Positions 26,943 to 62,582 are shown, counted from the first letter of the stretch. The stretch: DNA of 64,000 nucleotides from Patellaria atrata CBS 101060 (GCA_010093705.1 MU006098.1:417981-481980), one strand, 5' to 3'. The notes: generated by a model not told the origin, from the letters alone. Program-made: numbers and translations.

Positions 26943-27453
26943 CCAGACGTCCTATATAGTCCAGATATTCTGTATAGTTCAGATATCTATTACAGTCGGG
27001 AGATTCTGTACGATTTGGATATTGTACAGTTCAGATATCCAGTATGGTATACCTATCTAGTGGTGTACGCCCATCGAGCGCGGTGCAGACATTCTGTACA
27101 GGTTAGACGTTCTGTACGGTTTGGATGTCCAGTATGGTCATCCAATCTGCACAGGTCAGACATGCGGTACAGGTTAGCCGATCTATACAGTGTAAATACC
27201 TAGTACGGTTTATCTAGTACGGTTTGTCTAGTACGGTTTGTCTAGTACGGTTTGTCTAGTACAGTACACCCGTCGGCTCTAGTACAGTCTAGACATTCTA
27301 ATAGGTTATAACGTTTTGTACATTTCAGACAATCTCTACAGTTCCAGCATTCCGCACAGTTTAGGTATCTAGTATAATTCAGATATTCAAGATATTTCAG
27401 AAATTCCGCACGGTTCTGGGCATTCAGCACACTTTAGACGTTCTGTACGGTTT
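26943..27453. repeat. Degenerate ~18-bp minisatellite (consensus about TCAGACATTCTGTACAGT) with an embedded near-perfect 14-bp tandem array (CTAGTACGGTTTGT x4.5, 27200-27265)
   Basis: Units read by eye include ccagatattctgtatagt, tcagatatctattacagt, gcagacattctgtacagg, ttagacgttctgtacggt and tcagacaatctctacagt. The 20-mer TTAGACGTTCTGTACGGTTT is identical at 27103 and 27434. Confidence 0.8.
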
Positions 27454-41246: not shown

Positions 41247-42900
41247 CTACTTAACATCCACAACAACCATGATACCCAAAGCGTCCATTCTCCTATCGCC
41301 CTCTATCTCCTCCCTTGCCCTCTCCCATTCCTCTTCTTTCTCCACAGCGATAAAGCCATTGGGAGTGAGGACGTTGAGAGAGAACTCGGGGACCATGACA
41401 TCTGATTCGCGCAGGCGTGTTGACACTTCACGCTGGATGTCCTCGAAAAGGGACGAGGAATGGGGTGAGGTGACTGGATCAGGTTGGGATAAAACGGGAG
41501 GGGGTGCAACTTCGAATGGAACGAGACTCTGTGGGGAAGGAGGTGCAGTATGATCGGGGGAAACGGTGAATGTGATACGAATGGTGGAGGGCTTAAGAGG
41601 TACGAAGGATGTTTGCAGAGCGGGATCAAGGGGCGTTAATGACGACTGGAGGGTTCAAGTATTAGTATGTGGGTTTGATCCAAGTTTGTACGCTTGATAT
41701 TTGCTTTGTGGAAGCAAACATGGGAAAACACACCTCGTGCTGTTGCTGAGCAGCATCAATCGAACCGACGGAGCCACTTCTGATGTTCTCCTCTTGTGGA
41801 AACGACGTGGTTTCCTTGCCTTTTTTCGAGGGCCCACCGCCTTTCCTCGTAACCACGGCATATTGTCTCTGACGTTCATTTGTGACCATTCTTCTTAACA
41901 GTGGCGTGACCAGAGTAACGATTTTAGTCCCATCTCTGGGCCATACCCACTTCCTTGGAGGCCGCTCGCCATCAGGATACGGCTTGCCCGTTTCATCTAT
42001 TTCCGGAGCAGGTGCGCTTTCACTAAAGTACTTATCGCCAACGCCAGTGGTAAGGAAGTCACGAACGCAATTGAACAGCTTGAGCTTCACCATGTCAGTG
42101 TCGCCCTTTCCACGACTTCCTACACACTCCTGACGCTCCGGATTCTCTGGGTCGAGCATATAAGCCTTTGCCTCACCTTGCAGGTGAATGAAATTCTCCG
42201 GTGAGAGCTGAAGTGAGGCGTAGAGCTTCGACATTGGCGGTCGAGTGTATTTTTTGGCACCAGCCGCAGTGGGTTCACGAAACAGGGCAGCAGCTGAAGC
42301 CATGCCGGGAAAGCGCATCTCGGTTCGTTGAGACGAGGAAGTATTTTTATTTGAAGGCGAGGAATTGTTGTTCGTACTCTCTACTTGCGCCTCATCATTT
42401 GTTGAAACTAGAACGTCGTTCTGCTTCTGTCGCTTGGCGTCGGGTGTAGTTGGATCAGCAGCTATAGCTGGATCGAGGTTGACTTGTAGGTCTTGTTCGA
42501 GAGAACTATTATTGGCATCGTCCAAGGAGCGTTTTCTCTTGCCAAGCTGAGAAGTATGAGGGCTCTGTCGTAGCTCATCAACGGTTCGCGAGGGCTGTAA
42601 TATCCTCCCTGCTTGGTCTCTTGACTCGCTAGAACCGTTCTGTACTGTAGCAGCTTCTAACAACTCAGCTATCCCGTTTGACTCCAATCGTTGATGTTCT
42701 TCAAGGGCCTGTTGCGCTTGGTGATTGAAGGTCTCCAGCATATTGGGTGTTCGCGGAGCATCCGGATATGGAGCTGCCAATGACGCGACACCTTGAGTGA
42801 CTGCATATTCTTCTTCGTTGGCTTGATAGCCATTGGGATGTCCAGCGTGGGATCCCCCTTGAAAAGAGAGTTGGTGGTAGTATGGCGCCGAAGTAGACAT
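41247..42900 (-). CDS. Conserved fungal hypothetical protein, probably nuclear; exons 42900-41734, 41645-41247
   Basis: Long ORF with a basic KRKRS patch and a globular-looking core (YTRPPMSKLYASLQLSPENF...LLRRMVTNERQRQYA). The GTGTGT...ACTAAT...CAG intron (41733-41646) links to a 133-codon open exon ending ...VVVDVK-TAG. Confidence 0.75.
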
Positions 42901-45900
42901 AATCAGTTTGAATACGTTAAAGGACACGATGAGCTGGCGATAGACGAACCAGACCACACCGTCCCGCGGGTCAAAGTTAGTGTATTTGAAAATCCAGTAT
43001 GCCTCTACGAAACGAGTGAAAGCAGGAAGCTATATGATGGTTAGCGATGGAAAGAAAGTTCTTCAGGTAAGCAAGCCAGCAAGCGACCTAGAAGGCCTCT
43101 AAATAAAAGCATGGTGATTTGTATGTTACAGTCAGTAAGCCCTCGGGAGTCGCTTGCGGAGAACTGGATAATGGAAAATGGGAACGGGTGTACGTGAGGA
43201 GAAAGAGAACATACCAAGCAGAAACGATATGAGTACCGCAGTAAATTGAGGGAGGTTTCGCTTTTTTGTTATGTTTGCGAATAAGCTTGGCATTAAGTGC
43301 ACTAGGACTGATTTGGCGAGCTGAATTTCTACAAAGTATCTCCCACCACATATAACTTCAACTTCTCACTTTATTATATTTCGCTTCTGCTTATATGCAC
43401 GATTCCTCCAATGCTAATGATGCTCGATCAAACATGTGCGCTTGACGGCCTAAAGTAGCAATCACTCTAAAGTCACTTGTCCTTCTTTCGATACCCTTGC
43501 CTCTCTTACACGTTCATAACAGCCGTCAATTATGCGCTATGCGATCCCTAGATCTTTAACTCTCTCCTCTCAGTCGTCTGTGCAAGTGAAACTCTTACGC
43601 TTATAAGATATCACCTTCTCTTAATTTCCCACTTCGCCGTTTCTTTTTATCACCTTTTGACTATAATGCAATTGAATATGGCCGTATTAGGCCAGTCTTC
43701 CTGCGTTCTAGGCCAGGACGGCCTATGTCATTGACGATACACGAAAGGGCTCGCTCGTCTACGCATAATAGCATTACTATAGTCTACAACTTCATATAAA
43801 CATGTCAAGAAAACCTTGTACTTGCAGTCATCGCGACGATAGAGAGATGACAGTGCAATCTGATGGTACGGCATCCATTTCAGACTCCTACCCGATTCTC
43901 TTCGCGTCTCGTAAACTGCACGTTAGTGTTATTTCATCACTGGAAGATCGTGATATCTTGGACCCTATGTGCAGAGATTTTATCAAGGACCAGTCCCTTC
44001 AATTTCGTCTTATTATCCGTACAGTCTTGCATCGTTTGTGACACTCAAAATCAGACAGTCAATTATTAGTGTTATCAGCATTATCGCGAGAGTGTACAGA
44101 GTTACCTGTTTAAATCAAAGTTTTAGTTCCTTCTCCCATGCACGCTCTTTCCGTATCATGGCATGCGTGGGATATGAATCCGTTACATTCAAAAGGACTT
44201 GCCTCGATTTTGTAGAACATTCACAGAGCATAATTCAACCGGACTGTATAGAATGAGTAAATTATACGGACAGACTAACTGGCAATAGTAAATTGTATTT
44301 GTTTGTACACGGTTCCCCTCCTATTGTAACCAAAGGGTCCTAGAATGAGCAATATCTAAGAGAATGATGAAGACAAGAAATAACGTGATGAAACTGAACG
44401 GACGTATTGGCCTTGTATATTCAAATTCTGAAGACTAGTCCCACCAAGAGTGCGGTGAATACTGATATAGAAACAGTGCGTATAGAACAAAGGTACTCTC
44501 GCTTCTGAATCTGCTCCAAAGTACTAACTATAACTAATGCAAATTGCAAACGGGATGAGTTGTCCTCTTATAAGACCAACAGAAATCCTCCCCTTTCATA
44601 AGACATTCCTCTTCTCAGAACGTAATCGTTACAATCGGAAGGAACCGCAAGGAGAAAAAGTGAATGCTGGACCACGGAAAAATCGTTTGCTCGAAAAGTA
44701 GAGTGAAGTCAAATTTTTTAAGGGATATCTCGACATGAGGCCCTAAGATGTATCATAACTTGGGTGGGCACCTAGAATCGTTGAAAGGAGGTGTAAACTC
44801 TTATACTCTCATTGTTGGCGCTGAACGTTTGTCAAAGAAGCATATAAGGAAGAATAATGATTATAAGAGGAGATATAACAGCTAACTTGGTTGGAGCTCT
44901 CGAGAGACTCAGTGTTGGATAGCAGAATCCAGCGATCGGCTGGTAGGAGCGTGGTTTATGAGGAGGTCCAATTAGTAAAGTGCATAGACAGGACGCCTAC
45001 AGTTCTTCAAGGCCATATTCTCTTCCCCACTTGGTCCGGGGAAACTTCAACAAAGTGATAGGGAAGGTTTGACTATCCGAGGGTCTCCATGGTATTTTGA
45101 TTCTGCATCTCCATATGTAATTACGCTTTAATGCTAATGATAGCAAGCGACGTCATTGAAAACTGGAACTCACCGAGATGATGTTCATTATGTTCGAATC
45201 ACCACAAACCTAAGCTTGCTAATGGCAAGTCGCACGGTAATATCAATATTGTACGTCAGCAAATTATTGCATGGAGTAAGGTCCACTCGAAGCGTCGTCA
45301 CGCGGTGCTTGGTACAATCTTTATCGGCTCATAAAGGTTGTATTTTACAACTACACCAAATATGTTCTTAACAGCTGCTCTCCATCGTAAAAGCGGTAGG
45401 ACATAACCTACTTGGTGGACATCGGTAACGTTTCGCGATTACGTTGGCCCCGCGTATTCTAACTGTGAGGATTGTGAGCTACTCATGACTCCCAACTAAG
45501 TCACTATTACCGCCATAGTATATTACGTTCTATGTACTGCATGATACAGTTCTACGAAGTTGCCCTTGTAGCTTTATGGGTCCGATACTCTGACTATAAC
45601 AACACCACATTGTCGATATATACAGTACAAGTACCACAATCGACTCATTCGTTGTACTGACACGAGTTTTCTGGATTTTAACCAGTTATTAATGTCCTCA
45701 CAAGGTCTATAACCTGTAAGACATGGGTAGGGAACGGTTCGTTATATGTTCTAAGCGCTATGAACGCTAGCTATACGGCATGTGTTGCTTTTGTGAGTCC
45801 TAATGAAGTCGATCAGTCGATAATGAGGGCAACTGGCGGAAGTCCCCTTGTATGAATCAGAGACGAAATGAACGCAGATCAGAATGGAGGTAAGGATTCT

Positions 45901-46552
45901 ATTAAGCTTAGATGTCCATAGCAGTCTCAATAGCGTAATCTGCGGGTGATTGTTATCGCTACGAAGAGTCATTTACCTTTATATGTCCGTTCTACCTGTC
46001 GCCCTTCCGATCTCTACAGTAGATGATTATTTCTAGCTTTTCTCATCAGCGATACAGCATGTGCAGTGCAATCCGAGGTAAACCTCATATCTGCACAGTT
46101 TTACGAAATACGATCTATCAGGACACCCCACAATGCACAAGACGCTGTCTGGACATGTTAACGATTACCTTACTCTGTACCCGGAAGTGCTTAGAGTAAG
46201 AGTATTCCATACTTATCTAGCCCAAATCCGGGCGATTTTCTATCGATTATATCATCAAGATGCCCCGGCTCCTTGCGTTATTCGTTCCACGACGGTAATG
46301 CAGACTCCGCGTCGTGATACGCCGGGATCCTATCAGCGCCAGTGATACATCTTACACTGCCATACTTTCACAGATAGTTCGTTGACAGTCTTACTGTCGA
46401 GGATGTTTTTATTCGTGCATCAGGGGGAGGACGTCTTCGCGTTGTAAAAAGCGAGCGGTTTGCTGAACTGAGAAAATGCGAATCGTCGGAATATTTAGGC
46501 TTGTTCGGATTTCTATTTCTTCGCCATCCGTTCAGTTGCATATTCTACCAAG

Positions 46553-47077
46553 ATGCGTGCGCCGTTGTCCTTCGCTTTTTATTCAACCTTAGTCTCCTGG
46601 GCTATATGCATGCCTCCCCCGTTGAAGGAAGAGCGTCAAGGTCTCCCTGGAGTATAGTATCCCCTTTCTTGTCATTCTTGGACTGTCTTCATATTGACTC
46701 TCTTTCAGGTCTACATATGCGAAGACATTTACTGGCAAGGGAACTGCATATGGTTGAGCCGTCCGCTTGCCACTTGTTATGATATTGAACCCACGGTCTC
46801 TTCTATCGGACCAGATCCTGGGATTGTATGCGTATTCTTTGAGTAAGGTCCCTCAGATTCGATCTCTGATTTAGGTTCTTCAGCATTCATATTCCGTCGA
46901 TTGACATTGGTCCTAATGTTTGACGTTTGTAGGAACGGCTTCTGCAGCACGGTTACCACATGGCACAGATTTGAGTATCCGGGAGTAGATAATCTTGTGT
47001 CTATTGGGCTCAATGATCGATTCAGAAGTTACTCTTGTTATAATTCAAGGGAGGAGGCCCAAGTTGCACTCGATTGA
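46553..47077 (+). CDS. Small secreted cysteine-rich protein (125 aa), beta/gamma-crystallin-like; exons 46553-46651, 46709-46842, 46933-47077 (not in ORF track)
   Basis: Spliced product MRAPLSFAFYSTLVSWAICMPPPLKEERQGLPG|VYICEDIYWQGNCIWLSRPLATCYDIEPTVSSIGPDPGIVCVFFE|NGFCSTVTTWHRFEYPGVDNLVSIGLNDRFRSYSCYNSREEAQVALD. Hydrophobic N-terminus, six Cys in the mature part, introns GTATAG..TTGAC..CAG and GTAAGG..TTGAC..TAG. Confidence 0.78.
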
Positions 47078-47780
47078 GCGTACAATCAACATACTACTTT
47101 CCATTATAGCTGTTGGACCAATCGGATTAGACGTTAGACGAGCCAAAAAGACTTACATAGTAACTATGAGATGTCTAAGGACCACTTAGTACCCTTAATA
47201 TTGCAGTCATTTTGCCAGCCTTTACTTCAACTGTGTTCCTTCAGACTCCTTAATTTCCTATCATTCAATTTCCTTCAATGTACGTTGAGACGAGATGGAG
47301 CCGAAGAGTGTAGCTTGTCGTGGAGTTGAGTTTGCCGTGCGGTCCCCAGTTCCCCACTAGTGTACTTTCGGAGAACGAAATTCTTCGGTTCCTTTTTGAC
47401 CGTCACATCTAATCACCCAACTGGTCGAGCACCGAGAGATTGTTCTAAGTTACAAGTTTTTAGCAGATCTATGTACAATGGAACCTTAAAATGTATTGTT
47501 TACGGCATACTCCATCCTCCTCAACGTAACCCTCAGCACCGATTTCCGTTCTGATAAGCCTCTATCAGCAACATCACGAGCTGTCTTTTGGCAATTAGGA
47601 GTGGGCTGGTTGAGGGATTGTAATTAAGGTGGATTTGTCCGGTATACACAGCCCCTTTTGTCAAATTCTCCATCCATCAGGTTTCAATCTCATCGTATTA
47701 TGCTAAAATCTATATATATCTGTCATATCAAACACACTGGAATTCTCATTTCAGCTATTAATCCAATCTGACAAGCTACT

Positions 47781-49124
47781 ATGGCTTCGGCGAACCGTTC
47801 CGTTGGCAATATCTATGACAATAGCCTTGTTTTGGAATTCGAAAGGAAACCCGCTGCGAGTACTGAAAGACAACCGTCGTTGAACCACCGGAAAAGCGTT
47901 GATTCTGTTGAGGGAACTGCGAATAGCGCGAGCGAGCTCCTTCAATCCCATATTTCGAACGAGGATATTTGGAAACGCCTAGAATCTCTTCAACCTGTAG
48001 GGAAAGAGAATGGAGGCTATGAAGCCGTAGTTAACCCAAAGTTGCTCACCTTTGCGAAACAGAAACCTATTCAGCCACCACGGCTTCCAAAATCCCTTCC
48101 AGAAAGGCTTGAAATAGAAGAACTTCTTTCAGATGGCTATGCGTCTGTTTCCTCGGACGCTGATGTGCTTCGTCGGGAATTCGAGTTGATTCAAATTCTT
48201 CAAAAGACCCAGAAACCCGATAACCCTGATGATAGAGTGGATCGTAATGAGCTTTCGGGTTATCTCATTCAGCTTGATCGTTTATCAAAAGGGCGCATAG
48301 CGTCTGTCATTTCACCCCAGCCACCTCCCGTTCGCGCTTTGGCCCGAATGATAGAGACGAACGGAAACAAAGGGATTGACCTTATCATTGATGATCTTAC
48401 GCTCACAGCACAATGGCTTGTCTCGGAAGGGGAAGCTGACAACGGTATGTTACGACACACTCTCTTAAAGCGAGTGCATATTCTAGACGCGGCACTTCCA
48501 ACTCACCTCCGGGGCTATGCACAGACAGCTCTTATGCACGTCGAACATGAAATCCTGGAAAGACCCTACGTAAACGATGAAACTATGCTCGGCGATCAGG
48601 TATCGGATATTCCAAGGTCGAACTTCTGGGCCAGCGAGGATGGATATGCATGGGATATGGAAGAACTTGCGGCCGCGCTATCTGCCAACGGTGGGGTCAT
48701 GCGAAATCCTTTGAGCAGAGAGCTGTTTTCACCGGAAGATGTACGTTCTATTGTGCAGCACCCATTAGGCGGCCATCTAGGAGCTCTGCAAGTCCAGCAG
48801 GCTGAGCTTGTGAAAGGGCTACGTCAAAGTACGATTGAGAGATTGAGCCAATTATCCAAGCTCCTGCTAGAGGATCAAAGTCTGGACTCTATCCCCAGCC
48901 GACGGGGAATCGATGAGTTTCTAAATTACCTGGCCTCCCTTCCAGCAAGTGAACAGAAGGCAGTGGATATGCTGCGTGTTCCTGCTCGGGATAGCCATAC
49001 CGGTCAAGCTTACGACTGGTCAATTGGAGATGCACTTAGAGATGGGCAAGCAAATAAAGTATGTTTGCATAAGACTGGTGATTTTATTGGCCAGGCTGCT
49101 ACCCACCTCAAACTTCAAAGGTGA
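47781..49124 (+). CDS. Hypothetical protein (447 aa) with a C-terminal domain containing a U-box/NleG-like motif
   Basis: Intronless 447-codon ORF. Segment NDETMLGDQVSDIP...SEDGYAWDMEELAAALSANGGVMRNPLSRELFSPEDV. The function is inferred from motif resemblance only. Confidence 0.75.
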   Translation: MASANRSVGNIYDNSLVLEFERKPAASTERQPSLNHRKSVDSVEGTANSASELLQSHISNEDIWKRLESLQPVGKENGGYEAVVNPKLLTFAKQKPIQPPRLPKSLPERLEIEELLSDGYASVSSDADVLRREFELIQILQKTQKPDNPDDRVDRNELSGYLIQLDRLSKGRIASVISPQPPPVRALARMIETNGNKGIDLIIDDLTLTAQWLVSEGEADNGMLRHTLLKRVHILDAALPTHLRGYAQTALMHVEHEILERPYVNDETMLGDQVSDIPRSNFWASEDGYAWDMEELAAALSANGGVMRNPLSRELFSPEDVRSIVQHPLGGHLGALQVQQAELVKGLRQSTIERLSQLSKLLLEDQSLDSIPSRRGIDEFLNYLASLPASEQKAVDMLRVPARDSHTGQAYDWSIGDALRDGQANKVCLHKTGDFIGQAATHLKLQR

Positions 49125-49588
49125 TCGCGGATTTGGCAGAGCTCGCTTATCATTGCCATTACAGATTGGTATGGTTGTCAATAGAGAGGTTCTGGTATCT
49201 CAGACACCAATAACACTTACAGTTGTAACGTATCCTAACGATATTGGTCTTCAGCAGATGAAAAACTTTTGAGTTAGATCCATACTTGGTATCCTTTTTC
49301 TCAACCTGAAAATTTCTAAATCAATTTCACAATATTCTTTATGCTTGGTTATGTTCAGTCGGCGGACTTCCTCCCGCGTCACGGACAGCATCAATTAAAG
49401 TTTCACGAGTGCTAAATAAGTACTATCCAAGCTACTCGTCTGAAATATTGACAATACTCGGTTATTTGTACGTACCTTACGGTTCAAGGTATCCAACTGT
49501 TCCTACTTCTGGAACAATATAGTCAGAATCATCTTTAGAAATCGACCGCAGAATTAACGGGCCTTCCCGGCAAAGTGGAAGTAATGAA

Positions 49589-52500
49589 ATGGGGAAATCT
49601 GAAGAACCGTCAAGTATGCGTAAATGGCACTCGGATGTCATCAAAATAGCGGCGAAGCATCAACCGATAAATTCGAAACTTGAAGATTTCCCATTAGAAC
49701 AACTTTGTCTCCTCACTAACTCATACTTGAGGCTACAAGGCGTAGAATGCCAGCTATCTTCAAACACTGGTGATATCATTGCTTCTTTACTGCAAGATCA
49801 TTCAGCAAGGGTGGATGCAAGGAATGACGCTGCTATTGTTGCGACCATACACTTAATGCCTCGCTCTATCGGAAGAGCCTGTCTTCGGAGTGTTTTTGAT
49901 TATAGCAAAACCAACTCTCCAGACGTCTGTCAGTATTTGAGAACAATCGTTCTGGCTCGAATCGCAAATCCAACAGTTGTCGACCAGCCCGAATCAAACT
50001 GTGCTCAAGCTTTACTGGACTTATTCCGCAAGGAATTCCCTCTTCCTGGACCTCGGATTCAAGACTATTTTAAAAACTTGAGAGAAGTGGAATGTCCTGC
50101 TTTACTGTTGTTCAAAGAAGTTCACTCTATCCCAAGGAAATCTTGTGTTCGTGTGAGAAAATCTTTGTTAAGTTACAAACAGCAACAGAAGTGGCTTCAA
50201 GCATTCATTGAGTCCCGATGGATGACTGAACTCTCTCAAGAATCTCCTGTCATTCATATATTGGATGCGGAGTTCCCAGAGTGGCGTATATGGTCTAAAT
50301 GGCGTCCTAATACAAATCGTATATCCAACTGGGAGGATTTCACCAATGATCAACGCCGGACATTGGTAGACATCATCGCACTAGAAGGACCAGATTATGC
50401 ACACAATACAGAAACTTCGCTACGGCATGGTTTATCACTGGAGTCATCGCCTTCGCAAATGAAGACTCTACTGATTGATTATACCTCAAAGGATTATCTA
50501 TCTATGGCTGATCATATTCTCGCTATCCTCGATCGCGTACAGCAATCTGGGGGTCCTGCTATAAACTTTTTCATCCAAACTTGTGTTGGGAAGCCAGTGA
50601 CATCTTCTACGCTCAGTATATTAGAGCTACTTTGCTCTCAAGGGGAGCCGGAGGTGTTTAATCGATGGAACCAACTTGTCAATGCTAAATCTAATAGTGT
50701 TAAGTTAACAGCATTGTCTCAGGTCCTCCCATTAATTGATTGCAATACCCTATCCGAGATTGAAAATTCCCCTTTATCCTCTAAAGAGTTTCAAGACGTA
50801 ATCACTTACGCTCAGACTGCACTAAGTCGCCAACTTCATGATGGTCGATCTGGCTCGAATCTAGGAATGAAATTATGCGAGCTGGGGCATGCTTTACAGA
50901 ACTCCCCTTCATTCCTATCCTCTCTAGACGAGAAGACTAAGGACTTTGTAGATCTACTACCCGATAAAGATGAAATCAAAACTCTTTTCGACCTCCGTGA
51001 ATCCAATCAGCTTTCTAAACCTAAGAAGGGGAGCTTCTCACTAGAGGACGTCTCTCGTAGATTTCTCCTGTCACGTTTGTGTGGAGTGGGTACTGTCGAC
51101 AGCGGACTGCTTGAGGCTGTTAATGTATTTCTTGCAGTCGAATCACAGAGGCCAGATTCGATTCGAAAGGCCATATCTCTCATGATTGTCCAACGACCGC
51201 ACATTGACAAAGAAATCCGTCAATCATGTCTTGACCAGTTGAAATATCTCAGAGATGGCCTCATAGAGAGAATGACTTGTCTCCTCGATAAGGACACTGA
51301 TATGGCGTGCGTTCATTTTGCATCACTAATCGCAGAAAAACGATCGCTTCGAGAATGTGATTGCTGGAAACGTTGGCTTAGATGTATGATCGAGCAACGA
51401 GGGAGCTTGTTACTGCGAAATCTCTCACGAAACTTACCATTAAAATCTTGGTTCAAGTGGATTGAAAATCTGGAATTAGCTTTTGGGCCTATGCCTCCAC
51501 GCTTTGATGTTATCCCTACTATCAACGAGGGCCTTTTCCAATGGAGCACTTTTCTCTGGGAAACTTATGGAGATGTTTTGGTGCGTCTACAGGCTAGATC
51601 TGGGGCAAGGTCGACACTTGATTGGATCCTCCTTCAGGACTCTGAAATGACTAGGGAGCTGCTAAGCTTAATGGATAGTCCTCCACAAGATAACCGGCGA
51701 CCCATCTATGACACAGTTGTTAAGGGCTTGTTAGCCGATGGAAGGAATGCAGTGACTATTCGAGACAGCTTATCTCAACTGACGAAAGCATCAAAATTGG
51801 GAGTTAATTCCTGCTTACGCCTTGCAAAAAGACACGAGGAAGATTCTGAACCTATTGCAGCCACGACTTTGGCTATCTGGTTACAGTCCGAAGAGTTAAC
51901 TCCTGTTGACCGTGCTCTTCTTCAGAATGTTGCTGCGCTCCTCAACATTAGAAGCCAAGGTACTGAGTCCAGCTCAGCTGCTATCTTTGCAGTTCTAAAG
52001 CGGGATTTTGCTGACATATTGGAGAAGGGAAGACACCTTGAATATCTTCGAAGGGGTCTTACGGCGCATGATGCAGCAAGAACAAATACCTTGATCAAAC
52101 GACTCGAAGGATCATCTCATACTGAGGATGCTTTTATAAATATTCCGTCATCGCACCTCGATGTCATCGAACAAATTGATACGTACGAGTTCGAACTTGT
52201 CTTTCCGCTCTTAAATCTAAAACCTCTCCGGGCAAAAGCCTTAGCTATTGATGAAAATGTACGGATGCTAATTCTTCGCCTTCGTACACCTAGAAAGTTA
52301 GCACCGGTGGAATTTTGCGTTCATTTTCATCCGAGCGATGATGAAGCTGGCGACCAGAGACATCGTCACCGGCGAGTAACAATAATGGGCAAAGAACCAC
52401 AATATCAGAGTTGTAGCGCACGAGACACACGAACCCTATATCAAGTAAACCGCCTTATTGTCCGTCTGTTGTCCACTGGTTTTGAGTCTCTTAAGGATAC

Positions 52501-53407
52501 GTACGAAAAGGTCGCTGCGGGCTTAGACAGTATGAACCGTACCTGTATCATATGCGGGAAAGACCTTGGTGCAAAACTATGGCGATCAACCACCTGTTCG
52601 GTATTGTGCTACCAAATGTTTAACGATTCTCCGATCGAGACCCTTCTGAATGATCTATACATGGACCCTCCCGTGGTAGATTTGCTATTAACGGCTGTTT
52701 TCGCGGCCGCTAAATTGAAACGAACTGATATTGATCTACTTGATGGATGCCCTATTTCCCGGGTTAATCTCCCAATAGTACTGGATGGAATTCCACCCAT
52801 TCATTCCTTTGGCACTGGATATTACAGGAAACTTATTCGTCGGTTGGATCAGGAACAACAAAGGTTGCTTTCCTGGGTCTGTAATAACTATCAGGGGTTC
52901 ATACTGTCTGCTCCATCCTCGATGCGAGTTCCTAGCATGCCTGGGACGCAGTTTATTCTTGCCAATGGAAATCCTGAAAGAGAACGTGCGTTCGCAGCAC
53001 ACGTTGCGGAGCATGGCAGTCAAGTTGTGTTTCACGGTACTTCAATGGATAGGCTCTACAGCATATTGAGACATGGGCTTCTTATCACTACAGACACCCC
53101 TTTAATGGTCCATGGAGCGGTCGCAGGTGTGGGCATTTATTTGGCAGATGAACCTTCCAAATCCTTAGTGTACTCCCCTATCAGTTCTGGATGGAGTCAG
53201 GGCTCATTCTCAAATGTGCTATTGCTGCTCGGCGTCGAGTTAGCTGGACCGGTTTCAGTGAACGAGATGTATGTGATTTCCGATCCAACTAGAATCATGG
53301 TTCGCTATATATTTATGTGTCCGGCTGGATCTCAGATACCGATCGCTGCACACATCACTCCTGCTATGCAAATCACATTCAACATGCTCCGCTCAGGATT
53401 AGCATAG
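49589..53407 (+). CDS. Large (1272 aa) protein with a C-terminal PARP-family (PARP6/8/16-like) ADP-ribosyltransferase domain
   Basis: Intronless ORF. VVFHGTS (H1149), SILRHGL, HGAVAGVGIYLA (Y1184), SLVYS and NEMYVISDPTRIMVRYIF. Upstream are CIIC-x13-CSVLC and DPPVVDLLLTAVFAAA. Confidence 0.85.
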   Translation: MGKSEEPSSMRKWHSDVIKIAAKHQPINSKLEDFPLEQLCLLTNSYLRLQGVECQLSSNTGDIIASLLQDHSARVDARNDAAIVATIHLMPRSIGRACLRSVFDYSKTNSPDVCQYLRTIVLARIANPTVVDQPESNCAQALLDLFRKEFPLPGPRIQDYFKNLREVECPALLLFKEVHSIPRKSCVRVRKSLLSYKQQQKWLQAFIESRWMTELSQESPVIHILDAEFPEWRIWSKWRPNTNRISNWEDFTNDQRRTLVDIIALEGPDYAHNTETSLRHGLSLESSPSQMKTLLIDYTSKDYLSMADHILAILDRVQQSGGPAINFFIQTCVGKPVTSSTLSILELLCSQGEPEVFNRWNQLVNAKSNSVKLTALSQVLPLIDCNTLSEIENSPLSSKEFQDVITYAQTALSRQLHDGRSGSNLGMKLCELGHALQNSPSFLSSLDEKTKDFVDLLPDKDEIKTLFDLRESNQLSKPKKGSFSLEDVSRRFLLSRLCGVGTVDSGLLEAVNVFLAVESQRPDSIRKAISLMIVQRPHIDKEIRQSCLDQLKYLRDGLIERMTCLLDKDTDMACVHFASLIAEKRSLRECDCWKRWLRCMIEQRGSLLLRNLSRNLPLKSWFKWIENLELAFGPMPPRFDVIPTINEGLFQWSTFLWETYGDVLVRLQARSGARSTLDWILLQDSEMTRELLSLMDSPPQDNRRPIYDTVVKGLLADGRNAVTIRDSLSQLTKASKLGVNSCLRLAKRHEEDSEPIAATTLAIWLQSEELTPVDRALLQNVAALLNIRSQGTESSSAAIFAVLKRDFADILEKGRHLEYLRRGLTAHDAARTNTLIKRLEGSSHTEDAFINIPSSHLDVIEQIDTYEFELVFPLLNLKPLRAKALAIDENVRMLILRLRTPRKLAPVEFCVHFHPSDDEAGDQRHRHRRVTIMGKEPQYQSCSARDTRTLYQVNRLIVRLLSTGFESLKDTYEKVAAGLDSMNRTCIICGKDLGAKLWRSTTCSVLCYQMFNDSPIETLLNDLYMDPPVVDLLLTAVFAAAKLKRTDIDLLDGCPISRVNLPIVLDGIPPIHSFGTGYYRKLIRRLDQEQQRLLSWVCNNYQGFILSAPSSMRVPSMPGTQFILANGNPERERAFAAHVAEHGSQVVFHGTSMDRLYSILRHGLLITTDTPLMVHGAVAGVGIYLADEPSKSLVYSPISSGWSQGSFSNVLLLLGVELAGPVSVNEMYVISDPTRIMVRYIFMCPAGSQIPIAAHITPAMQITFNMLRSGLA

Positions 53408-53791
53408 AGAAAGACGCTTTTATCTCAATATCCCCTGTAATGATTACAACAAATCATGTGAAATATAAGGTTCCTTTGATCATTGCATAATATAGGACAT
53501 TACATGGACTTGGGTGCGTTCCAGTTAAGATTCTTCAGCCTTACGAAACCACTGTAACAGGAAAATCCGGGAGCATGCAGCAAGGCTGAATGCCAACACG
53601 CCCAAAAACATTGAATCAATCTATTATTGGCTATCGCCTTCAGCGCAAGACGACGCTTTGCAGCTCGAAGCCTTGACATTAACTACATTGATCCTTGGAT
53701 CATTGCAATGCAGACATCAAATCAATAGCTACGTGGTCCCACATAAAATGAACTTTTTTACGGATGAATGCTCCATGCAGATATTCAAGAT

Positions 53792-55286
53792 CTAGACCGT
53801 TCGAAGATACACAGAAGTAGGCAACAAATCTTGCTGAGGCGGACCCATCTTCCGAAGGCCAGGCGACACTGCCAACTCTATCACATCCTCCGCTGCGATT
53901 CTTCCCCCGCTCTTATTTACGTAAAAACTAGTTGTTGATGATACCATGTCACCGGGCTTAGGGAGTATTAAAGCTAGTCTTGACTGTTGTGCTCCAAGGT
54001 CGAAGGCCAGAGCAGACGCTTTGTCAACAATTCTAGACACCCCATCGGAATCGAGATCAAATGACATTTGCTGGAATGATTGAATGATTGTTCTGCATGC
54101 ATCTAAATGCTGCCGTTCGTGACTTTGGAGGACCTCTGAGCCAGCCTTGTGCTTTCCCGAATCTTGCGAGAGACTTTGTCGAACTACCTCGATAGTCATT
54201 GACCTCCATCGCTCAGTGACGTTATCAGGGCCTGGGTAGCTATATTCTGCATGAGGGGGAGTTGCTATTGAAGATTAGCTTGTTGTTCTATGTTTTACTG
54301 TTTCTAGAGGGGAACACACCGAAAAGTTCACAATATAGGGCCTCGAGCTTCAGACCGTAGCTGCCCATTGCAGCAAATCCAAACGGCGGGGAAAAGAATT
54401 TCTTTATCAGCATGTTCCAGAACTGACTTTCTAGAAAACCTCTTAAATGCATTATTCGGGGTGATCTATCCAGAAATGCCATAAGCTGCTCCGGTCCCAC
54501 TCTGGAGAATCCTATGTCGGTTTCTCGATTGTTTTGAGTTAAGGCCCTGACAGTATCTTTGACATCCTTTATCAGCTCGTTCAACTTGTACTTGATGACA
54601 CTATCTGGTAATGATTGGAATCGATTCGGATTTGAGATGAGGGCAGCTCGAAGGTCTTTCCGCTCGTCCTCTAGAAGTTGGACTTCATTCTTCCGTCTTT
54701 CCATCTCTTTTTTGTGCTGGTCATCCGAATCCGTAAGGTCGAGTGTGTGCAACTCCTCTATCTTTGCAATTTCGCGCGCGTGTGACGCGTTCAACTCTCC
54801 TATTTTGCGAGCATGTGCCTCTTCCGTGCTTGACAATCTCTGCGTATATTTATCTTCGATATACTGCAACGCCTTGTTATGCGCTGTTTCCATTCGGTGC
54901 ATTTCTTCCTCGCAAGAAACCTCCATAGCGCGGATTCGCACCTGAAGGTCGTCTCTTTCCTGGGTAAGCTCAGCGTTTCGCTTCTCCAGATCTCTACTCC
55001 GATTGAGCTGGATGTTCTTCTCATGCTCCCAGTCATTCATTCTTTGTCCAAACGTTGCATCGAGTCTTCTGTATCCTTCTGTAATGTCTGAATGAGCATG
55101 TCTCTCGTTGCGGAGGTCTTCCTGTAACAATAACATCTCTTCTTCAAATCTTGACCGTCTGGATTCACTTGTCTGGAGCTTTTGGGTTTGAATGCCAAGA
55201 TGGTATTTTGTTTCTCTGAGCATCAGTTCCAGCTCTTCTTTTTCCTTTGCCAGCCCTCTGACCTCCTTTGAAATGAGTTTCTGCAT
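53792..55286 (-). CDS. Coiled-coil protein (~479 aa) with a GrpE-like C-terminal alpha/beta region; probable intron 54319-54265
   Basis: About 250 aa of heptad-like E/K/R/L-rich sequence. A GTGTGT..GCTAAT..TAG intron joins it in frame to the 53792-54199 ORF (ERWRSMT...ALAFDLGAQQSR...IELAVSPGLRKMG...LLPTSVYL). An additional upstream exon is possible (GCTAAC...CAG around 55300-55281). Confidence 0.75.
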
Positions 55287-55784
55287 GTCGTGAAGTTAGC
55301 GGTAATGTCGAAGGGATGAAAATGTATTAGGAATATAATTATCAACTCCACGGTAAGTAAGTGAATTCTGAATAGATTGTCAAAGAAAACGCGAGAAGAA
55401 CACTCCCCAAAGAGGTCAACAAGGCTGGCCTAGCTATCCGTCTCCCTGACTGTGGCTTCGTTTCCACACCCCAGGGTATGTCTCTCAATGAACTACTTCC
55501 GAGCGTGGGACCTGATCCGATTAAGACATGGCTACATCCATGGATATGCACTACGATACCGGGATCTTGCGAGTTGAATTCACCTACATATGCATGCATG
55601 GTCTAAAAAGAACTACTTCACGAATCCTCTCTAATGTGTAAAGCTGTTGCAGATCTACGCTAATACCTGCCCACACAGAGCGGAACATTGCCGCCTCCTC
55701 AATTCACACTCCAGACTTTACACGCCGGATTAGGAAATCCAGAATCTCACAATATACCTAAAGAGGGTATCGACCGTAATATAC

Positions 55785-58158
55785 CTACGCTTCTAAGCTC
55801 GTCTCGAATGTCTTCAACTCTGTATTTTTGAAGAAAATTGAAACTTTGACATTAGTATCTATCGTTACTCGAATTTCTAAGTTGGCCGTGTAATATCGTT
55901 GATTTGTGCGACTGTGTTTCTCCTGGGTGAATTGCTCGGGCGGGATACGACTGAGATCATATGGGATAGCTGTTACGACGCTGCGGTCTGTCGAACAAGG
56001 TTAACCAAAGCTCCAATCAAGTGGATCTACTTACTTTGAGGGACCTGGGAATACTGCTCTGGGGCATATTTATCGTCAAGAGCAATAAACGTAGTTTGAA
56101 AGTTGCTGCGATCTTGAAGAGTGAAGGTTCGAGTGAAGTAGCTCGTTATCACCTTCGGCTTATCCGACAATAGAGCATCATCTTTTCGAATTAACCAGGC
56201 AACTTGCTCCTTAGCTTTCCTTCTTCCGTCAACATGGTCGACGATCACGTCTCCCGAAGCGTGACTATACGCTGAATACGCCTGACTGGTGATCACACCG
56301 AAATGACGTGGACATGGACGCACCCAGGTGAGACCTTCGACGCCTCTTCCGAGTGCTTTAGCCACTGCTCCTCGAGCAACAGCTGACCACCTGTAAGTTT
56401 GTGAGGACTGTCTTGCGAAGTTGCGAAACGAAAACGTGGGATTCTCACGAGTGTGGACCTCGGTCAACCTGGATTCTCCTCAGTCGGGTGAACTCTCTAA
56501 CCTCTTTGAGCAAGAAGTCGCTTTCAGCAAAACCCCCTGATAGAAAGATTGTCTAAAAGTGTTACCTCTCTGTTGAGAAAATTCGGTGAGTAGAAATACT
56601 TACCCGGACCATTGATCTCTGAAGGTCAACTTGAGTGATTTGGCCAGCGATAAGATCTATTACTCGATCTACCCATGGTCTGAACAATTGCTTTATTTCC
56701 GCCCTAGGCAATGATGAGTTATAAGACACTGCTGCAATCATGTTACGTACCTAGTTATTAGTAACTCTCCGTCCTGGATGCCCTTCATTTGATCGTCTTC
56801 GAAATTGACGCCTGCGGGTAGCGGAATATATTCAGGATCCTGCAGGTTAGGTTTCCCAAACTGCTTTTTGATAGTTTCGAACCCATTTATGACGGCGCGC
56901 ATATTAGAACTAACAACAGTATGTGCTCCAAATTCGTCTGGGGAGTCTTTTGCTAACTCGGCATAGTATTTAGGACCGAGTTTCTTCTTGAGCCAGTTTT
57001 GGAAGTCGAGATCAATGAAGGATGCTCCGCATCTATCACCTAACCGCTGCGTTAATAAAAAACGAAGAAATCCGACAGTCTATACGATATACCGGTTGCA
57101 GTTCCGATTTGTTCAGTCCTGAAGGTGGGTTCTAACTCCACGATGCGATAAGAGACAAGATCCTTATTGCTCTCGTCAGAGGTAGTGAATAATCATGCCG
57201 TACTTTTGGTGCTTACCACAGTTCCTCCTCCTGCATCGCAAACAACAAAACAGTCCCCCTATTAAGTGATTAAATACCGTTAATTCGCGTGTTGCTTTAA
57301 CTTACCACCATCAACTCCATATCTTCACTTTCGTTCAAATGGTTCAGTATGTAGAAAGCAGTGGCTTCCGCTTCTGACAATATGAAGGTCCTCCTAAGGG
57401 TAGGTAATTGCTTCACATTAAAACCTGCATCATTGATCGCTCTAAAAGTTCTATTTAGGGCTGATTCAGACCAGACCTTTCTTGCGTTAATGTCTGTATC
57501 CATCTTTTCGGCTCTCACTTACTGCAGGTATAGTAACGACTAGATCAATAGGTATCCTGGAAAAAGCGTCCTCGTTGATGTGATCACCTTGTTGTAGTGA
57601 ACGCATAACATGTTTTCGAAATCGAGCTAAATATTCAGTGGCAATCTCCACCGAGTCTTTGGTGGTGCCAGGAGGAATTCCACCCGGCAGCTTCTGTATA
57701 GCTCTAAGGTCGAGGTTTTTCGTACTATCCAACGCTCTCAATATGCTTTTCAACTCTTCAATTTTATCCCTTGGGTCTAATTCCAACTTCGTCCATTTGA
57801 TCGTCTCAGACTTGGGTGATATATCGTTACCCCATTGTGAAGCAGCATCAGGCGCTGGCGAGTAAGAGATCACGCTGGGGACCTTCACCTCATTACTGCT
57901 ACCATCTATGCCCGGCCAGTCTTGGTGGACCTTGATGTCCTCCAACCGGAAAACATCTGTGACCGAGGTTGATTCGCACCAGGCAAACCCTTCAAAGTGG
58001 TGAGCATTTATACTCTATTTGGAAATTATTAGAGACCTGACTGTACCAGTATAAGTAGTCCCATAATCAAGCGCGAACACAAGTCGATTTGCTGGAGTTT
58101 GTGTTGGATCTACCCCGGCTGGAGACCGCATTGAGGGAAATCTTCGAGCTCGATCCAT
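55785..58158 (-). CDS. Atypical Hsp70-family (HSPA12-like) ATPase, 637 aa, 10 exons: 58158-58047, 57989-57523, 57476-57306, 57258-57217, 57162-57093, 57039-56751, 56703-56604, 56552-56449, 56390-56035, 55987-55785
   Basis: Spliced motifs ALDYGTTYTG, WPG...KVPSVISY, LVVTIPAVWS, LSEAEATA, VVCDAGGGTVDLVSY, CGASFID, FETIKKQF, FLSGGFAES and WSAVARGAV. Exon lengths sum to 1914 nt with no stop or frameshift. There is no EEVD tail. Confidence 0.88.
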
Positions 58159-58204
58159 TTGTCTTAACCTGCTTTGCTCAATTACGAGTGCAGAATATAG
58201 TTAG

Positions 58205-58275
58205 TGTAGATAAGACAACAAACTGCATTAAACGAATATAAACTCCAGCTCTCATAAGATGTTGTCTTATTTACA
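58205..58275. repeat. 16-bp inverted repeat (one mismatch, 39-nt spacer) upstream of the Hsp70-like ATG
   Basis: TGTAGATAAGACAACA at 58205-58220 and TGTTGTCTTATTTACA at 58260-58275. Confidence 0.7.
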
Positions 58276-58949
58276 GAAGAGCTGAGCAGCCCGAAATGTC
58301 GCATGAAATGGTCGTAGATCAACTGGCTAGACATGTCGGTATATTATACAAGCATGATGCTGACTGTTTGCTTGGGATGACACCTATAACTAGTTAATGT
58401 AGGTAGGAGCCATCCATGAGTCGAGACCCCTCGAGGGTTCGATAATCCTTCTCGGTAGAGGTGAGTAAAACTTGTGATGTTGATTCTCAGCCTTGTCGCC
58501 CTTCTCGCTAATCCTGTCCAAATCCGGCAAATTTCAAGGAATCGCGGCAGGCACTCAACATGCGCAGGACTGCATGTGCCCCCACTACCAATGGAATACT
58601 GTACTGCTCCGGATTCTGATCTCGCCAGCACATATTGCATGTTCACCCTCCTCATGTGGGATAGAGTGCAGGCAGCAATGACTCCATCGTATCGCAGTCA
58701 GTGTTAGATGTCCTAATCGGGCTTTTGCTAGAAGGTAGCCTCGTGTAATTGATTAACAGACCTGACCATATTTTCTTCTTTTCCGTTAAGCTGGATTGAG
58801 ACATCTCCTTGAGCAAGAAGAGGATTTCGTGAGGCTCTCAACCTGGAACACTGCTCCCGGCACTTTTCATCCATTACACGTTTGCACGAACATATAAGCT
58901 TCCAATAGCTGATAATTTTTGACCTTTGCCATTCCATGTACCTATCAGA

Positions 58950-59741
58950 ATGGACTGGGCTCATCAGACGGGATTCCACTCGTTTTCGCAATATCAGGAT
59001 CAGAACCTAGAGCGGCTGGCTCGGGACTACGAAGAGAATGTTTCGAAAACCCTGAAACCCCTTTCTGTAAAGATCGTTTCTCCCTATGTCACTGGCTTAA
59101 GGGCAAAGATTGTCGATCTGAATTCCAAGATCAGCCAACTGTCAAGCGAAAAAGGGGCTCTGGTAGATGAGCTCCAGAAGCAACGAGATGCCGTGCTATA
59201 TGACCACAATCAAATGGCCATCAAGATCATGCAATCGAGGGCAAAAGTGCAACCCGATGTCAGCCCTCGTCAGAATGGTCAAAGACCCCCTCCTCTAGGG
59301 CAGGCGTTAGCGGAGCTCATATACGGTTACGAAATGCTGCGGAAGGAGCTCGACGCCATGAGGCAGCGAAATCACGAGTTGGAAGAACAATCATTGCAAA
59401 GACAATGGGCGGACCACGCTGATACCATGGTCGCGGCTCCCGGTCAGACCGTCAAGGCGGAAGACCTTTACAGTCTGCGGAACCTCATTCGGAGCAAATA
59501 TGCGTTGGACATTGAGATTTGGAGCTTGCGGGATGTGCATGCTAGAAACCAGTACATAGTGGACGAGAAAAAGATGAAATCAGAAGCGGCGCTGATGGAA
59601 ATACGGCAGGCTTTAGACGTATGGGGGAATGAGGATAGTGGTTGGACGGACGAGGAGTTACCGTTCGTGGAGGAGATTTACCGCAGACTTATGAGCATTC
59701 CTTTGGGACAATACAAGCAACCGGCGAGAAGATCGCGATGA
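58950..59741 (+). CDS. Hypothetical coiled-coil protein (263 aa) with a C-terminal helical domain, divergent from the Hsp70-like gene
   Basis: ATG at 58950 within the 58926-59741 ORF. Heptad-like segments and C-terminal LYSLRNLIRSKYALDIEIWSLR...VW...WTDEE...IYRRL. Confidence 0.72.
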   Translation: MDWAHQTGFHSFSQYQDQNLERLARDYEENVSKTLKPLSVKIVSPYVTGLRAKIVDLNSKISQLSSEKGALVDELQKQRDAVLYDHNQMAIKIMQSRAKVQPDVSPRQNGQRPPPLGQALAELIYGYEMLRKELDAMRQRNHELEEQSLQRQWADHADTMVAAPGQTVKAEDLYSLRNLIRSKYALDIEIWSLRDVHARNQYIVDEKKMKSEAALMEIRQALDVWGNEDSGWTDEELPFVEEIYRRLMSIPLGQYKQPARRSR

Positions 59742-60541: not shown

Positions 60542-62582
60542 TCACGTTTCACTACCCGTAGCTATTTCACTAGTATTAGAGACGCTCTCTGCAGTCTCCG
60601 GTCGGTTATCTCCCTCATTCGCAGATGGTGTTGCGACAACGCCAGCGGGCGGATTAGGGTGACCGAACGGAGCCCCGTCTTCCTCAGCATCGATCTGCAT
60701 AAGATACGTTTCCCATATTTCGATCAACTGTGTTGCGTTAGCATGCCGTCGGGCTAGATGACTTAATTTTTGTCACATGCCTCTTTCTGTGCCTCCACAG
60801 CGCTCTCAAGGTACGTCTCAACTCCAGACTTAAAGTCCTCGACCTTCTCCCTCTCGAAACGGTCGAGTTCAGATCGCATCAAACGGCCCATATCTTCGAA
60901 TAAAAGTCTTGCTTGATGTACTCTTCTTTCAGCATCCGACACATCTGCACTGAGCTGGTTTAATCTATCTTGTTGACTTCTACCTTGTCGTAGTAGCTTA
61001 TCTTGCGTAGCTTTCCGCTTCTGTAGTTCCGATTCTGCTGCGTGCCACGAATGGTATGCTTTTTGACGTTGCTGGAAGGCCATCTTCACGCTTCCAATCA
61101 AACGGATATATTCGTCGAGAACGATCCCAAGCGTTAGGACGTCCTGCTGAGCTTGTCTCTCGTAGAGTTCGCGAATCCGCAATTGAACTTCAGAAAGGCC
61201 ATCCAGAGGCCCGGAGAGGGAGGGCGAAAGTTCTACAACAGCGAGAGCGTGCAACGACGCAGAGAAGTCCCCACATGCTTCAGCTAAGCCCTTGCGCTGT
61301 GCGACCACCGTGTCGGTAGCTTTTAGGAGCGCCTTAAGCTGCGTTTCGAGTGCATCCAGGTAGACTTTTCGATCATGAAACCACTGTCATATTTAATCAG
61401 TACAGGGTCGTTAGCGAATAGGGGTAGAACATGGATATACGTCATCATGTTCGATGAATTTTCCACCACTCCCGACGGAAATTCCTATCGAGCCAAACAT
61501 GCCCTTACTTTCAACTAAGCCGGGATCTTTCCGTTCTTTATGTTTAATATCAACTGTGAATGCCTCACTCTCGAGGAATAATTTTAGGTCACCATCATGT
61601 TGTAGGATTGGATGTGCTGCAGCTTTATTCAACATTCTTTCACATGCCTGCCGGCGCGATTCCACGAACTCTGCATCGAACCGACCAACTGCTTGCTTCT
61701 CAGGAGGTGGAGGAACAACTACTCCAGGATTGTTGTTATGCAGTTGATTATAGAGCCATAAAAAATCGCGATAACGGCGCGATACTGTGAATTCGGATTT
61801 ACGGTAAGCTTTTGATGTGGTCTGAAGCAGGATTGTCAGTGTATCTTTTACAAGTCTCAGTATATCTCCACCACTACCTTTGTAGTTACTTGGTACACTG
61901 TGTGTGAGCTTGTCAGGTCGCCAACTTTGTGCGGATCCCCAACAGTAACCTGGAACGTTGGTTTCGCTGCTTGTTCAACGCTCATGCTTGGTTGGGTTTG
62001 CCTTTTCGGAACATCGTTAGACGGTGGTTGGACTGGCGGTGGTATTCTGGGTCCCATAGATCGTTCCGCCTCTTCATCATCGTCTAAGCTGGCCGATTCC
62101 ATCAGTCCTCGTAATGAGGATTGCGATGTCGTCGCGGGAGTTCGGGAGACCTTAACGGGCTCTTTTTGAGGAGGTGCTGGGGGAGCATCGGCTTGAGGAG
62201 GTGTGGAGTCATCCCGTAAAGGATCCAGAGGACCAAGAGAGTCTGATACTGCTTCTAAGCGAGTAGGTTGTGCTCCGTAACGCTTGATGATTCTCGTTCC
62301 TCTTCCGGCGGGGGATTTAGGAGCAGTAGATACCGACGGGGTAGTTGGAGGTTTCGACGAGTCTATACAGTGAGTCAGCTGCAATCGGATACTATGGGCA
62401 TTAAGACGTGATCCTCACCTGAGGTATTCTCAGTTCTTTCTTCAGTGGTTGCCTTGGTCGAAGTCTGATTGGGGCCGGACTGTGAAGGGACATCTATATT
62501 TGGACGGTAAGTGATCTTGCCGAGAAGAAAATAACAGTGACTTACCGCCCCAGGGCGAACTTCCTTCATCCCCAAGATCCAT
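60542..62582 (-). CDS. VPS5: Retromer sorting nexin Vps5 (PX-BAR); exons 62582-62546, 62493-62419, 62362-61878, 61821-61441, 61383-60781, 60727-60542
   Basis: PX domain VGDPHKVGDLTSSHTVYQV, RRYRDFLWLY and PPPPEKQAVGRF. BAR domain LDEYIRLIGSVKMAFQQR, ELDRFEREKVEDFKSGVETYLESAVEAQKE|LIEIWETY. Confidence 0.94.

Follow-up and report, generated by a model that had tools for sequence, protein, structure and literature searches.

Do six compactly arranged accessory genes in a fungal genome form one system, or do only some of them belong together? The question is raised by a stretch of 64,000 nucleotides from Patellaria atrata CBS 101060 (GCA_010093705.1, MU006098.1:417981-481980), which we refer to as the window. 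An initial annotation of this DNA had tentatively read the six genes at 46553-59741 as one co-inherited cassette encoding a small secreted crystallin-like protein, a U-box-like protein, a PARP-type ADP-ribosyltransferase (ART), a GrpE-like coiled-coil protein, an atypical Hsp70 and a helical protein. All six genes are present and intact. They do not, however, behave like a single cassette: only the U-box-like gene and the PARP-like gene form a core whose members are also neighbors in other loci. We consider it probable that the locus holds a conserved module of these two genes, alongside four neighbors that are not tied to the module in other fungi.

The two genes of the module lie head to tail, with the U-box-like gene upstream. 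The upstream product would be a helical protein of about 450 residues with a zinc-free RING/U-box-like domain, and the downstream product a large protein that ends in a PARP domain of the putative mono-ART kind, with two Cys/His clusters ahead of it. The features concerned are:

47781-49124, plus strand: gene for the U-box-like partner protein, 447 residues (open reading frame, ORF)
48507-48821, plus strand: candidate RING/U-box-like segment of that protein, residues 243-347, folded alone
49589-53407, plus strand: gene for the PARP-like protein, 1272 residues (ORF; exact match to public protein P0001)
52316-52609, plus strand: two conserved Cys/His clusters of the PARP-like protein (alignment of 17 sequences)
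52979-53404, plus strand: PARP-type ART catalytic domain (Pfam PF00644)

Gene neighborhoods of the PARP-like family

Gene neighborhoods were assessed in one metagenome scan with an alignment of seven PARP-like relatives. The scan retrieved 32 metagenome loci encoding the PARP-like family, with 27-49% identity to the window in the best segment, and all 32 were searched with each of the six genes and both flanking genes (E ≤ 1e-3). Eleven loci keep the 5' side of the PARP-like gene together with upstream DNA and were testable in this direction (L001, L003, L004, L007, L011, L012, L015, L016, L020, L027 and L031). The downstream direction was tested in 16 loci that extend 2 kb or more beyond the PARP-like gene.

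At all 11 testable loci, sequence of the 447-residue family lies directly upstream of the PARP-like gene and on the same strand. According to the family profile, the partner gene is full length or nearly so in eight of them (L001, L003, L007, L011, L012, L020, L027 and L031), where the profile hits one to three ORF pieces and the best piece scores E = 1e-78 to 1e-186. Subtracting match coordinates puts the two genes roughly 0.3-1.3 kb apart in ten loci; the gap reaches at most some 3.4 kb in L031 and is 465 bp in the window. A predicted protein (P0137) fuses a U-box-family piece to a PARP-family N-terminus, and PF00644 was matched in six locus ORFs.

Judged by shared flanks, the 11 loci represent eight lineages. 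The flanking genes (50 of 100 non-nested ORFs of at least 140 residues were scanned with Pfam) are ordinary and differ between lineages, with TRAPPC9 and a thioesterase, an aldo-keto reductase and DUF3425, CSTF2 and AOX, a P-type ATPase, or RPC82 and eIF2D next to the pair. Adjacency and common orientation of the two genes are thus held across at least seven different genomic contexts.

The other four genes behaved differently. Relatives of the Hsp70-like and coiled-coil genes were found in none of the 32 loci at the threshold used, including the 16 with at least 2 kb of downstream sequence, and the small secreted-type protein was likewise found in none of the 32. Relaxing the threshold to E ≤ 1 yielded chance-level matches only, and Pfam detected no HSP70 among the 50 flank ORFs scanned. 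When other window ORFs of at least 60 residues were compared with all locus ORFs, the only matches were three short ORFs inside the 447-residue gene and a weak match to the 263-residue protein. The latter is an ORF in L021 (4231-4974, minus strand), located just downstream of the PARP-like gene, which weakly resembles the C-terminal 110 residues of the 263-residue protein (window 59403-59714; about 25% identity over 116 residues, E about 2e-7 against a small database). This likeness could be a remnant of an older neighborhood, or it could be due to chance.

The proposed co-inheritance therefore stands for the ART and U-box-like genes, neighbors in 11 of 11 testable loci, and lacks support for the other four. 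The single cassette of six finds no backing in these loci, with three of its genes absent from all 32 loci and a fourth represented by the weak match in L021. In terms of the outcome that the initial annotation had named as counting against it, namely that the homologs are never neighbors elsewhere, this holds for four of the genes in the metagenome loci and fails for two. Going by sequence, the four genes appear to be lineage-specific neighbors with no tie to the pair in the loci of other fungi, and we do not count them as parts of the system on present evidence, which corrects the six-gene reading. A link among all six genes that is specific to Patellaria may exist.

As a separate observation, an ORF with a HET domain (Pfam HET, 2.5e-11) lies at 3488-5242 on the minus strand of L027, about 2.2 kb upstream of the partner gene and with a thioesterase-like gene in between. 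L027 is alone among the loci in having such an ORF near the partner gene.

The PARP-like protein and its U-box-like partner

The Pfam PARP domain (PF00644) matches residues 1131-1220 of the 1272-residue protein with 43.6 bits against a curated cut-off of 26.7 (E = 3e-11), so that the annotation of this gene as a PARP-type ART is borne out. Among solved structures, PARP2 (E = 0.0012) and PARP16 (E = 0.0041) are nearest to it in sequence. H1149 and Y1184 fall on the PARP2 motif and do not vary among 17 aligned sequences; the FHGTS and GIY motifs around them are fully or almost fully conserved. The position of the catalytic glutamate, placed via the PARP2 alignment, is occupied by Met in the window and by Ile, Thr or Val in seven relatives. 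Since the catalytic Glu is absent, we regard the protein, as far as its sequence goes, as a putative enzyme of the mono-ART type at most.

The two clusters ahead of the ART domain consist of C910, H912, H925 and C942, and of C986, C989, C1003 and C1007. In the same 17 sequences, H925 is nearly invariant and the other seven residues are invariant; the conserved CxxC...CxxxC cluster precedes the ART domain by about 120 residues. The ART domain itself is located at the extreme C-terminus, the protein stopping about 50 residues past the Pfam match. Pfam found neither a UBCc domain (ubiquitin-conjugating enzyme, E2) nor an RWD domain in the PARP-like protein, and the N-terminal region of about 900 residues gave no family match.

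The 447-residue partner has no match in Pfam or NCBIfam. A profile search against 1.84 billion representatives placed it in a family with 297 members at E ≤ 1e-3, of which 132 reach E ≤ 1e-30; most are 400-500 residues long. Among 15 family members scanned with Pfam, 14 remained without a match and none contained a U-box; the only match was a borderline TPR_19 in P0020. Positions 28-82 of the family profile match designed and consensus TPR proteins among PDB sequences. Most relatives carry this TPR-like motif at the N-terminus, followed by helices and the U-box-like domain, while the window partner is without a clear TPR-like motif.

The AlphaFold2 model of the partner (85 sequences) reached a mean predicted local distance difference test score (pLDDT) of 86.5, with 85-98 from residue 100 on. 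Residues 100-447 are predicted to be all-alpha with an embedded RING/U-box-like domain, and residues 346-447 form a C-terminal helical bundle. Searches with the full model returned generic helical matches: Foldseek gave none at E ≤ 0.001, and VIA-align gave Z-scores of 7.4 at most, with a RING protein (PHF7) only at rank 30. Because such generic matches dominated the search with the whole model, residues 243-347 were folded alone (pLDDT 90.0, predicted template-modeling score 0.79), with core strands and helices at 282-326.

With this segment as the query, 33 of the 42 rows listed by Foldseek were U-box or RING ubiquitin ligase (E3) entries by title, including LubX, E4B, CHIP, Ufd2, AO7, TRAF6, RNF4, RNF8, AvrPtoB and others. 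The best row was LubX U-box 1 (E = 0.024, probability 0.82). For two rows from the anaphase-promoting complex (APC/C) we take the matched chain to be the RING subunit, and the other nine rows are spliceosome chains, presumably the U-box protein Prp19. In VIA-align, 38 of 50 rows were RING-type by title, the best being PHF7 (Z = 6.0, root-mean-square deviation 6.0, 91 residues aligned), followed by APC/C (Z = 5.0). Within the family, the residues Y, D, Y, W, E, L, R-N-P, F, D, I and H-P-G are nearly invariant in the core. The segment contains no cysteine and thus lacks the zinc-ligand set, which fits a U-box and not a zinc RING. The agreement of the Foldseek and VIA-align lists supports a RING/U-box-like fold at the level of the predicted structure, and we describe the domain as a predicted, high-confidence, cysteine-free RING/U-box-like fold without Pfam support. 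The label "U-box-like" is accordingly retained for the predicted fold, with Pfam remaining blank.

Two side observations concern this family. Contigs from two DNA runs are near-identical to the window, of which they are probably the source, and contain no joints. In one of these runs (X2) the contigs break up at window positions 48403-48535, within the U-box-like gene, giving short alternatives at about 20x beside about 350x and with one to three letters differing; we read this break as a minor variant or a sequencing error. Another family member, P0167 (648 residues), has the U-box-like core at its C-terminus (residues 459-640), and its composition looks non-fungal. At the N-terminus it resembles an Arabidopsis chain of PDB entry 4e8u (E = 8e-5), and a prokaryote genome scan with P0167 found no relative.

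Precedents and competing explanations

RING-type E3 ligases that work with a PARP-family enzyme are known from animals, namely DTX3L with PARP9 and RNF146 with tankyrase. To our knowledge, these animal partners do not form a conserved adjacent gene pair of the kind described here. The RNF146 RING and the Deltex RING-DTC are among the weak VIA-align matches of the partner domain (Z = 3.0-3.4). Unlike the partner, DTX3L and RNF146 have zinc RINGs together with DTC or WWE domains that bind ADP-ribose, none of which was found in the pair. A further likeness is to the U-box ligases (CHIP/STUB1, Ufd2/E4B, Prp19 and LubX), where the predicted fold of residues 243-347 has its best matches in LubX, E4B, CHIP and Ufd2 and is likewise free of cysteine. 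CHIP is built of a TPR domain, long helices and a U-box in this order, and the relatives of the partner would resemble it, by their predicted structure, in having an N-terminal TPR-like motif and then long helices. The partner differs from the U-box ligases in that it has no Pfam U-box, one TPR-like motif in place of a three-repeat domain, and an additional helical bundle at its C-terminus.

Among fungi, two surveys describe two PARP types, fPARP1 and fPARP2/PARP-Ubc (bioRxiv 10.64898/2026.07.25.740670; PMC13720257). The clade 6A protein fPARP2/PARP-Ubc is described as a single polypeptide that combines a PARP6-like ART with an RWD module and an E2 domain (bioRxiv 10.64898/2026.07.25.740670; PMC13720257; PMC2964712), and this E2 fusion gives a PARP-ubiquitin link in fungi a precedent. 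The surveys call the clade 6 enzymes functionally uncharacterized (bioRxiv 10.64898/2026.07.25.740670; PMC13720257). Clade 6 PARPs (PARP6/8/16 and fPARP2) are reported to have no Glu in the H-Y-E triad (PMC2964712). They are also described as having a PfamB_2311 / 4C* zinc finger and a helical extension just before the ART domain. The protein fPARP2/PARP-Ubc is like the PARP-like protein in being a fungal PARP-type ART without the catalytic Glu, in having a cysteine cluster N-terminal of the ART and in its tie to the ubiquitin system. It differs in having an RWD module and a C-terminal UBCc, whereas the PARP-like protein ends with the ART domain; the N-terminal region of the latter is unrelated, and its ubiquitin-system part is a separate adjacent gene. 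From its sequence, the PARP-like family looks like a further type of fungal PARP beside fPARP1 and fPARP2. A literature search gave no description of the U-box-like/PARP-like pair, although the 2026 bioRxiv survey may include proteins of this kind in the "PARP only" cases of its Table S2. Nor did a search on PARP with U-box in fungi bring up a description of the pair, most of the papers being judged from their titles.

In parallel to the known ART/E3 partnerships and to the fungal PARP-E2 fusion, we propose that the products of the two genes would cooperate. In this view the U-box-like protein would bring in an E2 charged with ubiquitin, while the same targets (or the two proteins each other, or ubiquitin) would be mono-ADP-ribosylated by the PARP-like enzyme. 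We put forward, as a tentative and possible rather than probable extension, that the pair represents an undescribed third fungal ADP-ribosylation system, in which a mono-ART is inherited as a unit with a dedicated zinc-free RING/U-box-like ligase, the two having common targets and possibly coupling ADP-ribosylation with ubiquitylation; in Patellaria, this system may have recruited the adjacent atypical Hsp70 ATPase and a coiled-coil partner.

Several observations weigh against a tightly coupled pair. In L004, L016 and L015, which represent two lineages, the partner consists of short frameshifted remnants only (1-1590 in L004, 1-1400 in L016 and 2400-3140 in L015), with the pieces in different reading frames. 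The PARP-like ORFs of these three loci are intact and longer (1582-1708 residues from stop to stop) and keep both His and Tyr. By its sequence, this looks as if one gene of the pair has become a pseudogene; the enzyme can thus be maintained with no intact partner beside it, and the decay speaks against strict dependence. On the short contig L030, an N-terminus of the U-box family lies downstream of the PARP 3' end on the same strand (167-724 and 1426-2265), suggesting that the gene order is not fixed or that there are tandem units. The L001/L003, L020 and L027 lineages have the thioesterase neighbor and some other genes in common, and the genomic contexts are therefore not all independent. As for the fold of the partner, the individual matches are weak or modest, reaching E = 0.024 and Z = 6.0 at best; searching PDB sequences with the family profile yielded TPR matches only and no U-box; and the N-terminus of the window protein is degenerate, with pLDDT 43-75 over residues 1-100 and poor conservation.

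The same evidence bears on two other explanations. The adjacency could be passive, that is, inherited synteny or co-transfer without functional coupling, and this finds some support in the thioesterase and eIF2D neighbors that three lineages have in common, which make part of the signal ordinary synteny, and in the partner that decayed in two lineages next to a PARP-like ORF that is still open. Against this, adjacency and orientation have been kept at 27-33% identity to the window for the PARP-like protein and about 40-48% for the partner. Gene order in filamentous ascomycetes erodes fast at such divergence; every other window gene has lost its linkage, and the flanks differ in at least seven contexts. 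We regard a merely passive neighborhood as quite unlikely. It also seems unlikely, if somewhat easier to imagine, that the PARP-like protein serves as a scaffold devoid of catalytic activity, with the U-box-like domain as a structural module without ligase function. The missing catalytic Glu would agree with this, as would a U-box-like domain too divergent for Pfam or the PDB-sequence profile search. What argues for activity is that H1149, Y1184, FHGTS and GIY are invariant or nearly so, as binding of nicotinamide adenine dinucleotide (NAD) would require, and that active mono-ARTs of clades 3 and 6 have typically lost this Glu (PMC2964712).

If the two products do cooperate, the pair would extend ART/E3 coupling, which is already known, to an undescribed fungal two-gene form. 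The fixed neighbor of the PARP-like gene belongs to a family without a Pfam model that comprises about 300 sequence clusters and has a predicted E3-ligase fold. Since conserved co-oriented gene pairs are uncommon in fungi, the pair offers a testable handle on a coupling of mono-ADP-ribosylation and ubiquitylation outside animals.

The four remaining genes and their surroundings

The other genes of the locus and the features bordering it are as follows:

46553-46651, 46709-46842 and 46933-47077, plus strand: gene for a small protein with cysteines and a signal-like N-terminus (model of three exons from sequence alone, about 125 residues)
55286-54320 and 54264-53792, minus strand: two-exon gene for a coiled-coil protein (55-nt intron at 54265-54319; recorded as P0018, 479 residues)
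58158-55785, minus strand: ten-exon gene for an Hsp70-like (actin-like ATPase) protein (introns all GT...AG; recorded start 58131)
58950-59741, plus strand: gene for a helical/coiled-coil protein of 263 residues (ORF; exact match to public protein P0002)
60763-61974: VPS5, downstream of the six genes (Vps5 4.8e-79, PX 5.6e-24)
41662-42900: gene for a protein of 412 residues that borders the site on the other side
43030-46552, no strand: gene-poor, AT-richer stretch before the six genes (GC content 0.41-0.44)

The coiled-coil gene is convergent with the PARP-like gene, and the 263-residue gene is divergent from the Hsp70-like gene. The small protein has a hydrophobic N-terminus and six cysteines; a Pfam scan of its exons 2 and 3 gave no match, and "crystallin-like" is a putative label for it. 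The 263-residue coiled-coil protein belongs to no family in an Atlas look-up, with scores of 0.88 at most.

Our ten-exon model of the Hsp70-like gene is identical to the recorded protein P0012 (628 residues) except for nine additional N-terminal residues. Pfam HSP70 (PF00012) matches residues 177-454 of P0012 at profile positions 135-371 of 599, scoring 22.7 bits where the cut-off is 20.6. The match is limited to the ATPase part, the substrate-binding domain and lid being unmatched. The motifs DYGTT, DAGGGTVD and GGF are present and are conserved in five relatives, and the C-terminus reads ...SLEA, not an EEVD-type tail. No PDB chain matched P0012 at E ≤ 0.01, and a prokaryote genome scan with the Hsp70-like alignment gave no match. 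By its sequence the gene is a real, divergent Hsp70 ATPase-domain protein, and its description as an atypical Hsp70 was confirmed for the ATPase part. In this respect it can be likened, by description, to HSPA12A/B; HSPA12 proteins are described as lacking the helical lid, and their function is given as unknown (PMC13580251).

The first exon of the coiled-coil gene encodes sequence 100% identical to the recorded protein P0018. The label "GrpE-like" lacks support: Pfam GrpE (PF01025) gave no match to the coiled-coil protein at E ≤ 5, and the comparison of its Atlas structure with a GrpE cluster gave template-modeling (TM) scores of 0.25/0.44, under those of other rows. The Atlas look-alikes of P0018 are clusters of hypothetical proteins from Ascomycota with scores of 0.94-0.95. 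By structure it also resembles the "mitochondria-eating protein" (MIEAP) and the plant DUF641/GIL1 coiled-coil families (TM 0.33-0.50); both are leads only. A word-based search with the coiled-coil protein found no match but itself.

The initial annotation had suggested that the Hsp70 and its supposed exchange factor may serve the effector encoded next to them, a role that finds no support: the coiled-coil protein shows no GrpE signal, and no Hsp70-like or coiled-coil relative was found in the 32 loci. The two genes could instead be a separate second unit, an atypical Hsp70 ATPase with a dedicated partner. They stand in tandem on the minus strand, 498 bp apart, the three nucleotide-binding motifs are kept in the Hsp70-like protein and its five relatives, and the Atlas clusters and the MIEAP-type resemblance (TM up to 0.5) point in this direction as leads only. 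We nevertheless find this doubtful, given that the word-based search yielded no relative of the coiled-coil protein, that the prokaryote genome scans were empty, and that a literature search on HSPA12 with MIEAP gave no relevant paper, judged mostly from titles. That all six genes are one co-inherited system after all, with the Hsp70-like ATPase and a coiled-coil cofactor folding or guarding the ART/U-box effector and the small secreted and 263-residue proteins as additional parts, is very improbable. The tight packing of the six between housekeeping genes and behind a gene-poor stretch speaks for it, as do the weak 263-residue relative downstream of the PARP-like gene in L021 and the order of parts in the U-box-like family, which resembles that of the Hsp70-binding ligase CHIP. 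The absence of three of the genes from all 32 loci, with nothing above chance level at E ≤ 1, and of HSP70 from the 50 flank ORFs speaks against it, and so do the missing GrpE match, the SLEA tail and the loss of a clear TPR-like motif from the window's own U-box-like protein. The conserved pair beside four apparently lineage-specific neighbors is the preferred reading of the locus.

The window is fungal in character. The genes of the window have short GT...AG introns, and their neighbors are eukaryotic housekeeping genes; those matched by Pfam include a separase, an AAA ATPase, an EF-hand mitochondrial carrier, an FGGY kinase, a cation-efflux protein, an MIF4G-MA3 protein and VPS5. Public names of proteins identical to those of the window point to a Dothideomycete, Patellaria atrata. 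A scan of 28 other window ORFs turned up no transposase and no Starship-type gene, and the gene-poor stretch at 43030-46552 contains no ORF of more than 100 residues. Within this stretch, the bin 44001-46000 has a TpA/ApT ratio of 0.97, a (CpA+TpG)/(ApC+GpT) ratio of 0.98 and a GC content of 0.415, values that are borderline for repeat-induced point mutation. The bins 20001-22000 and 26001-28000 have similar dinucleotide indices.

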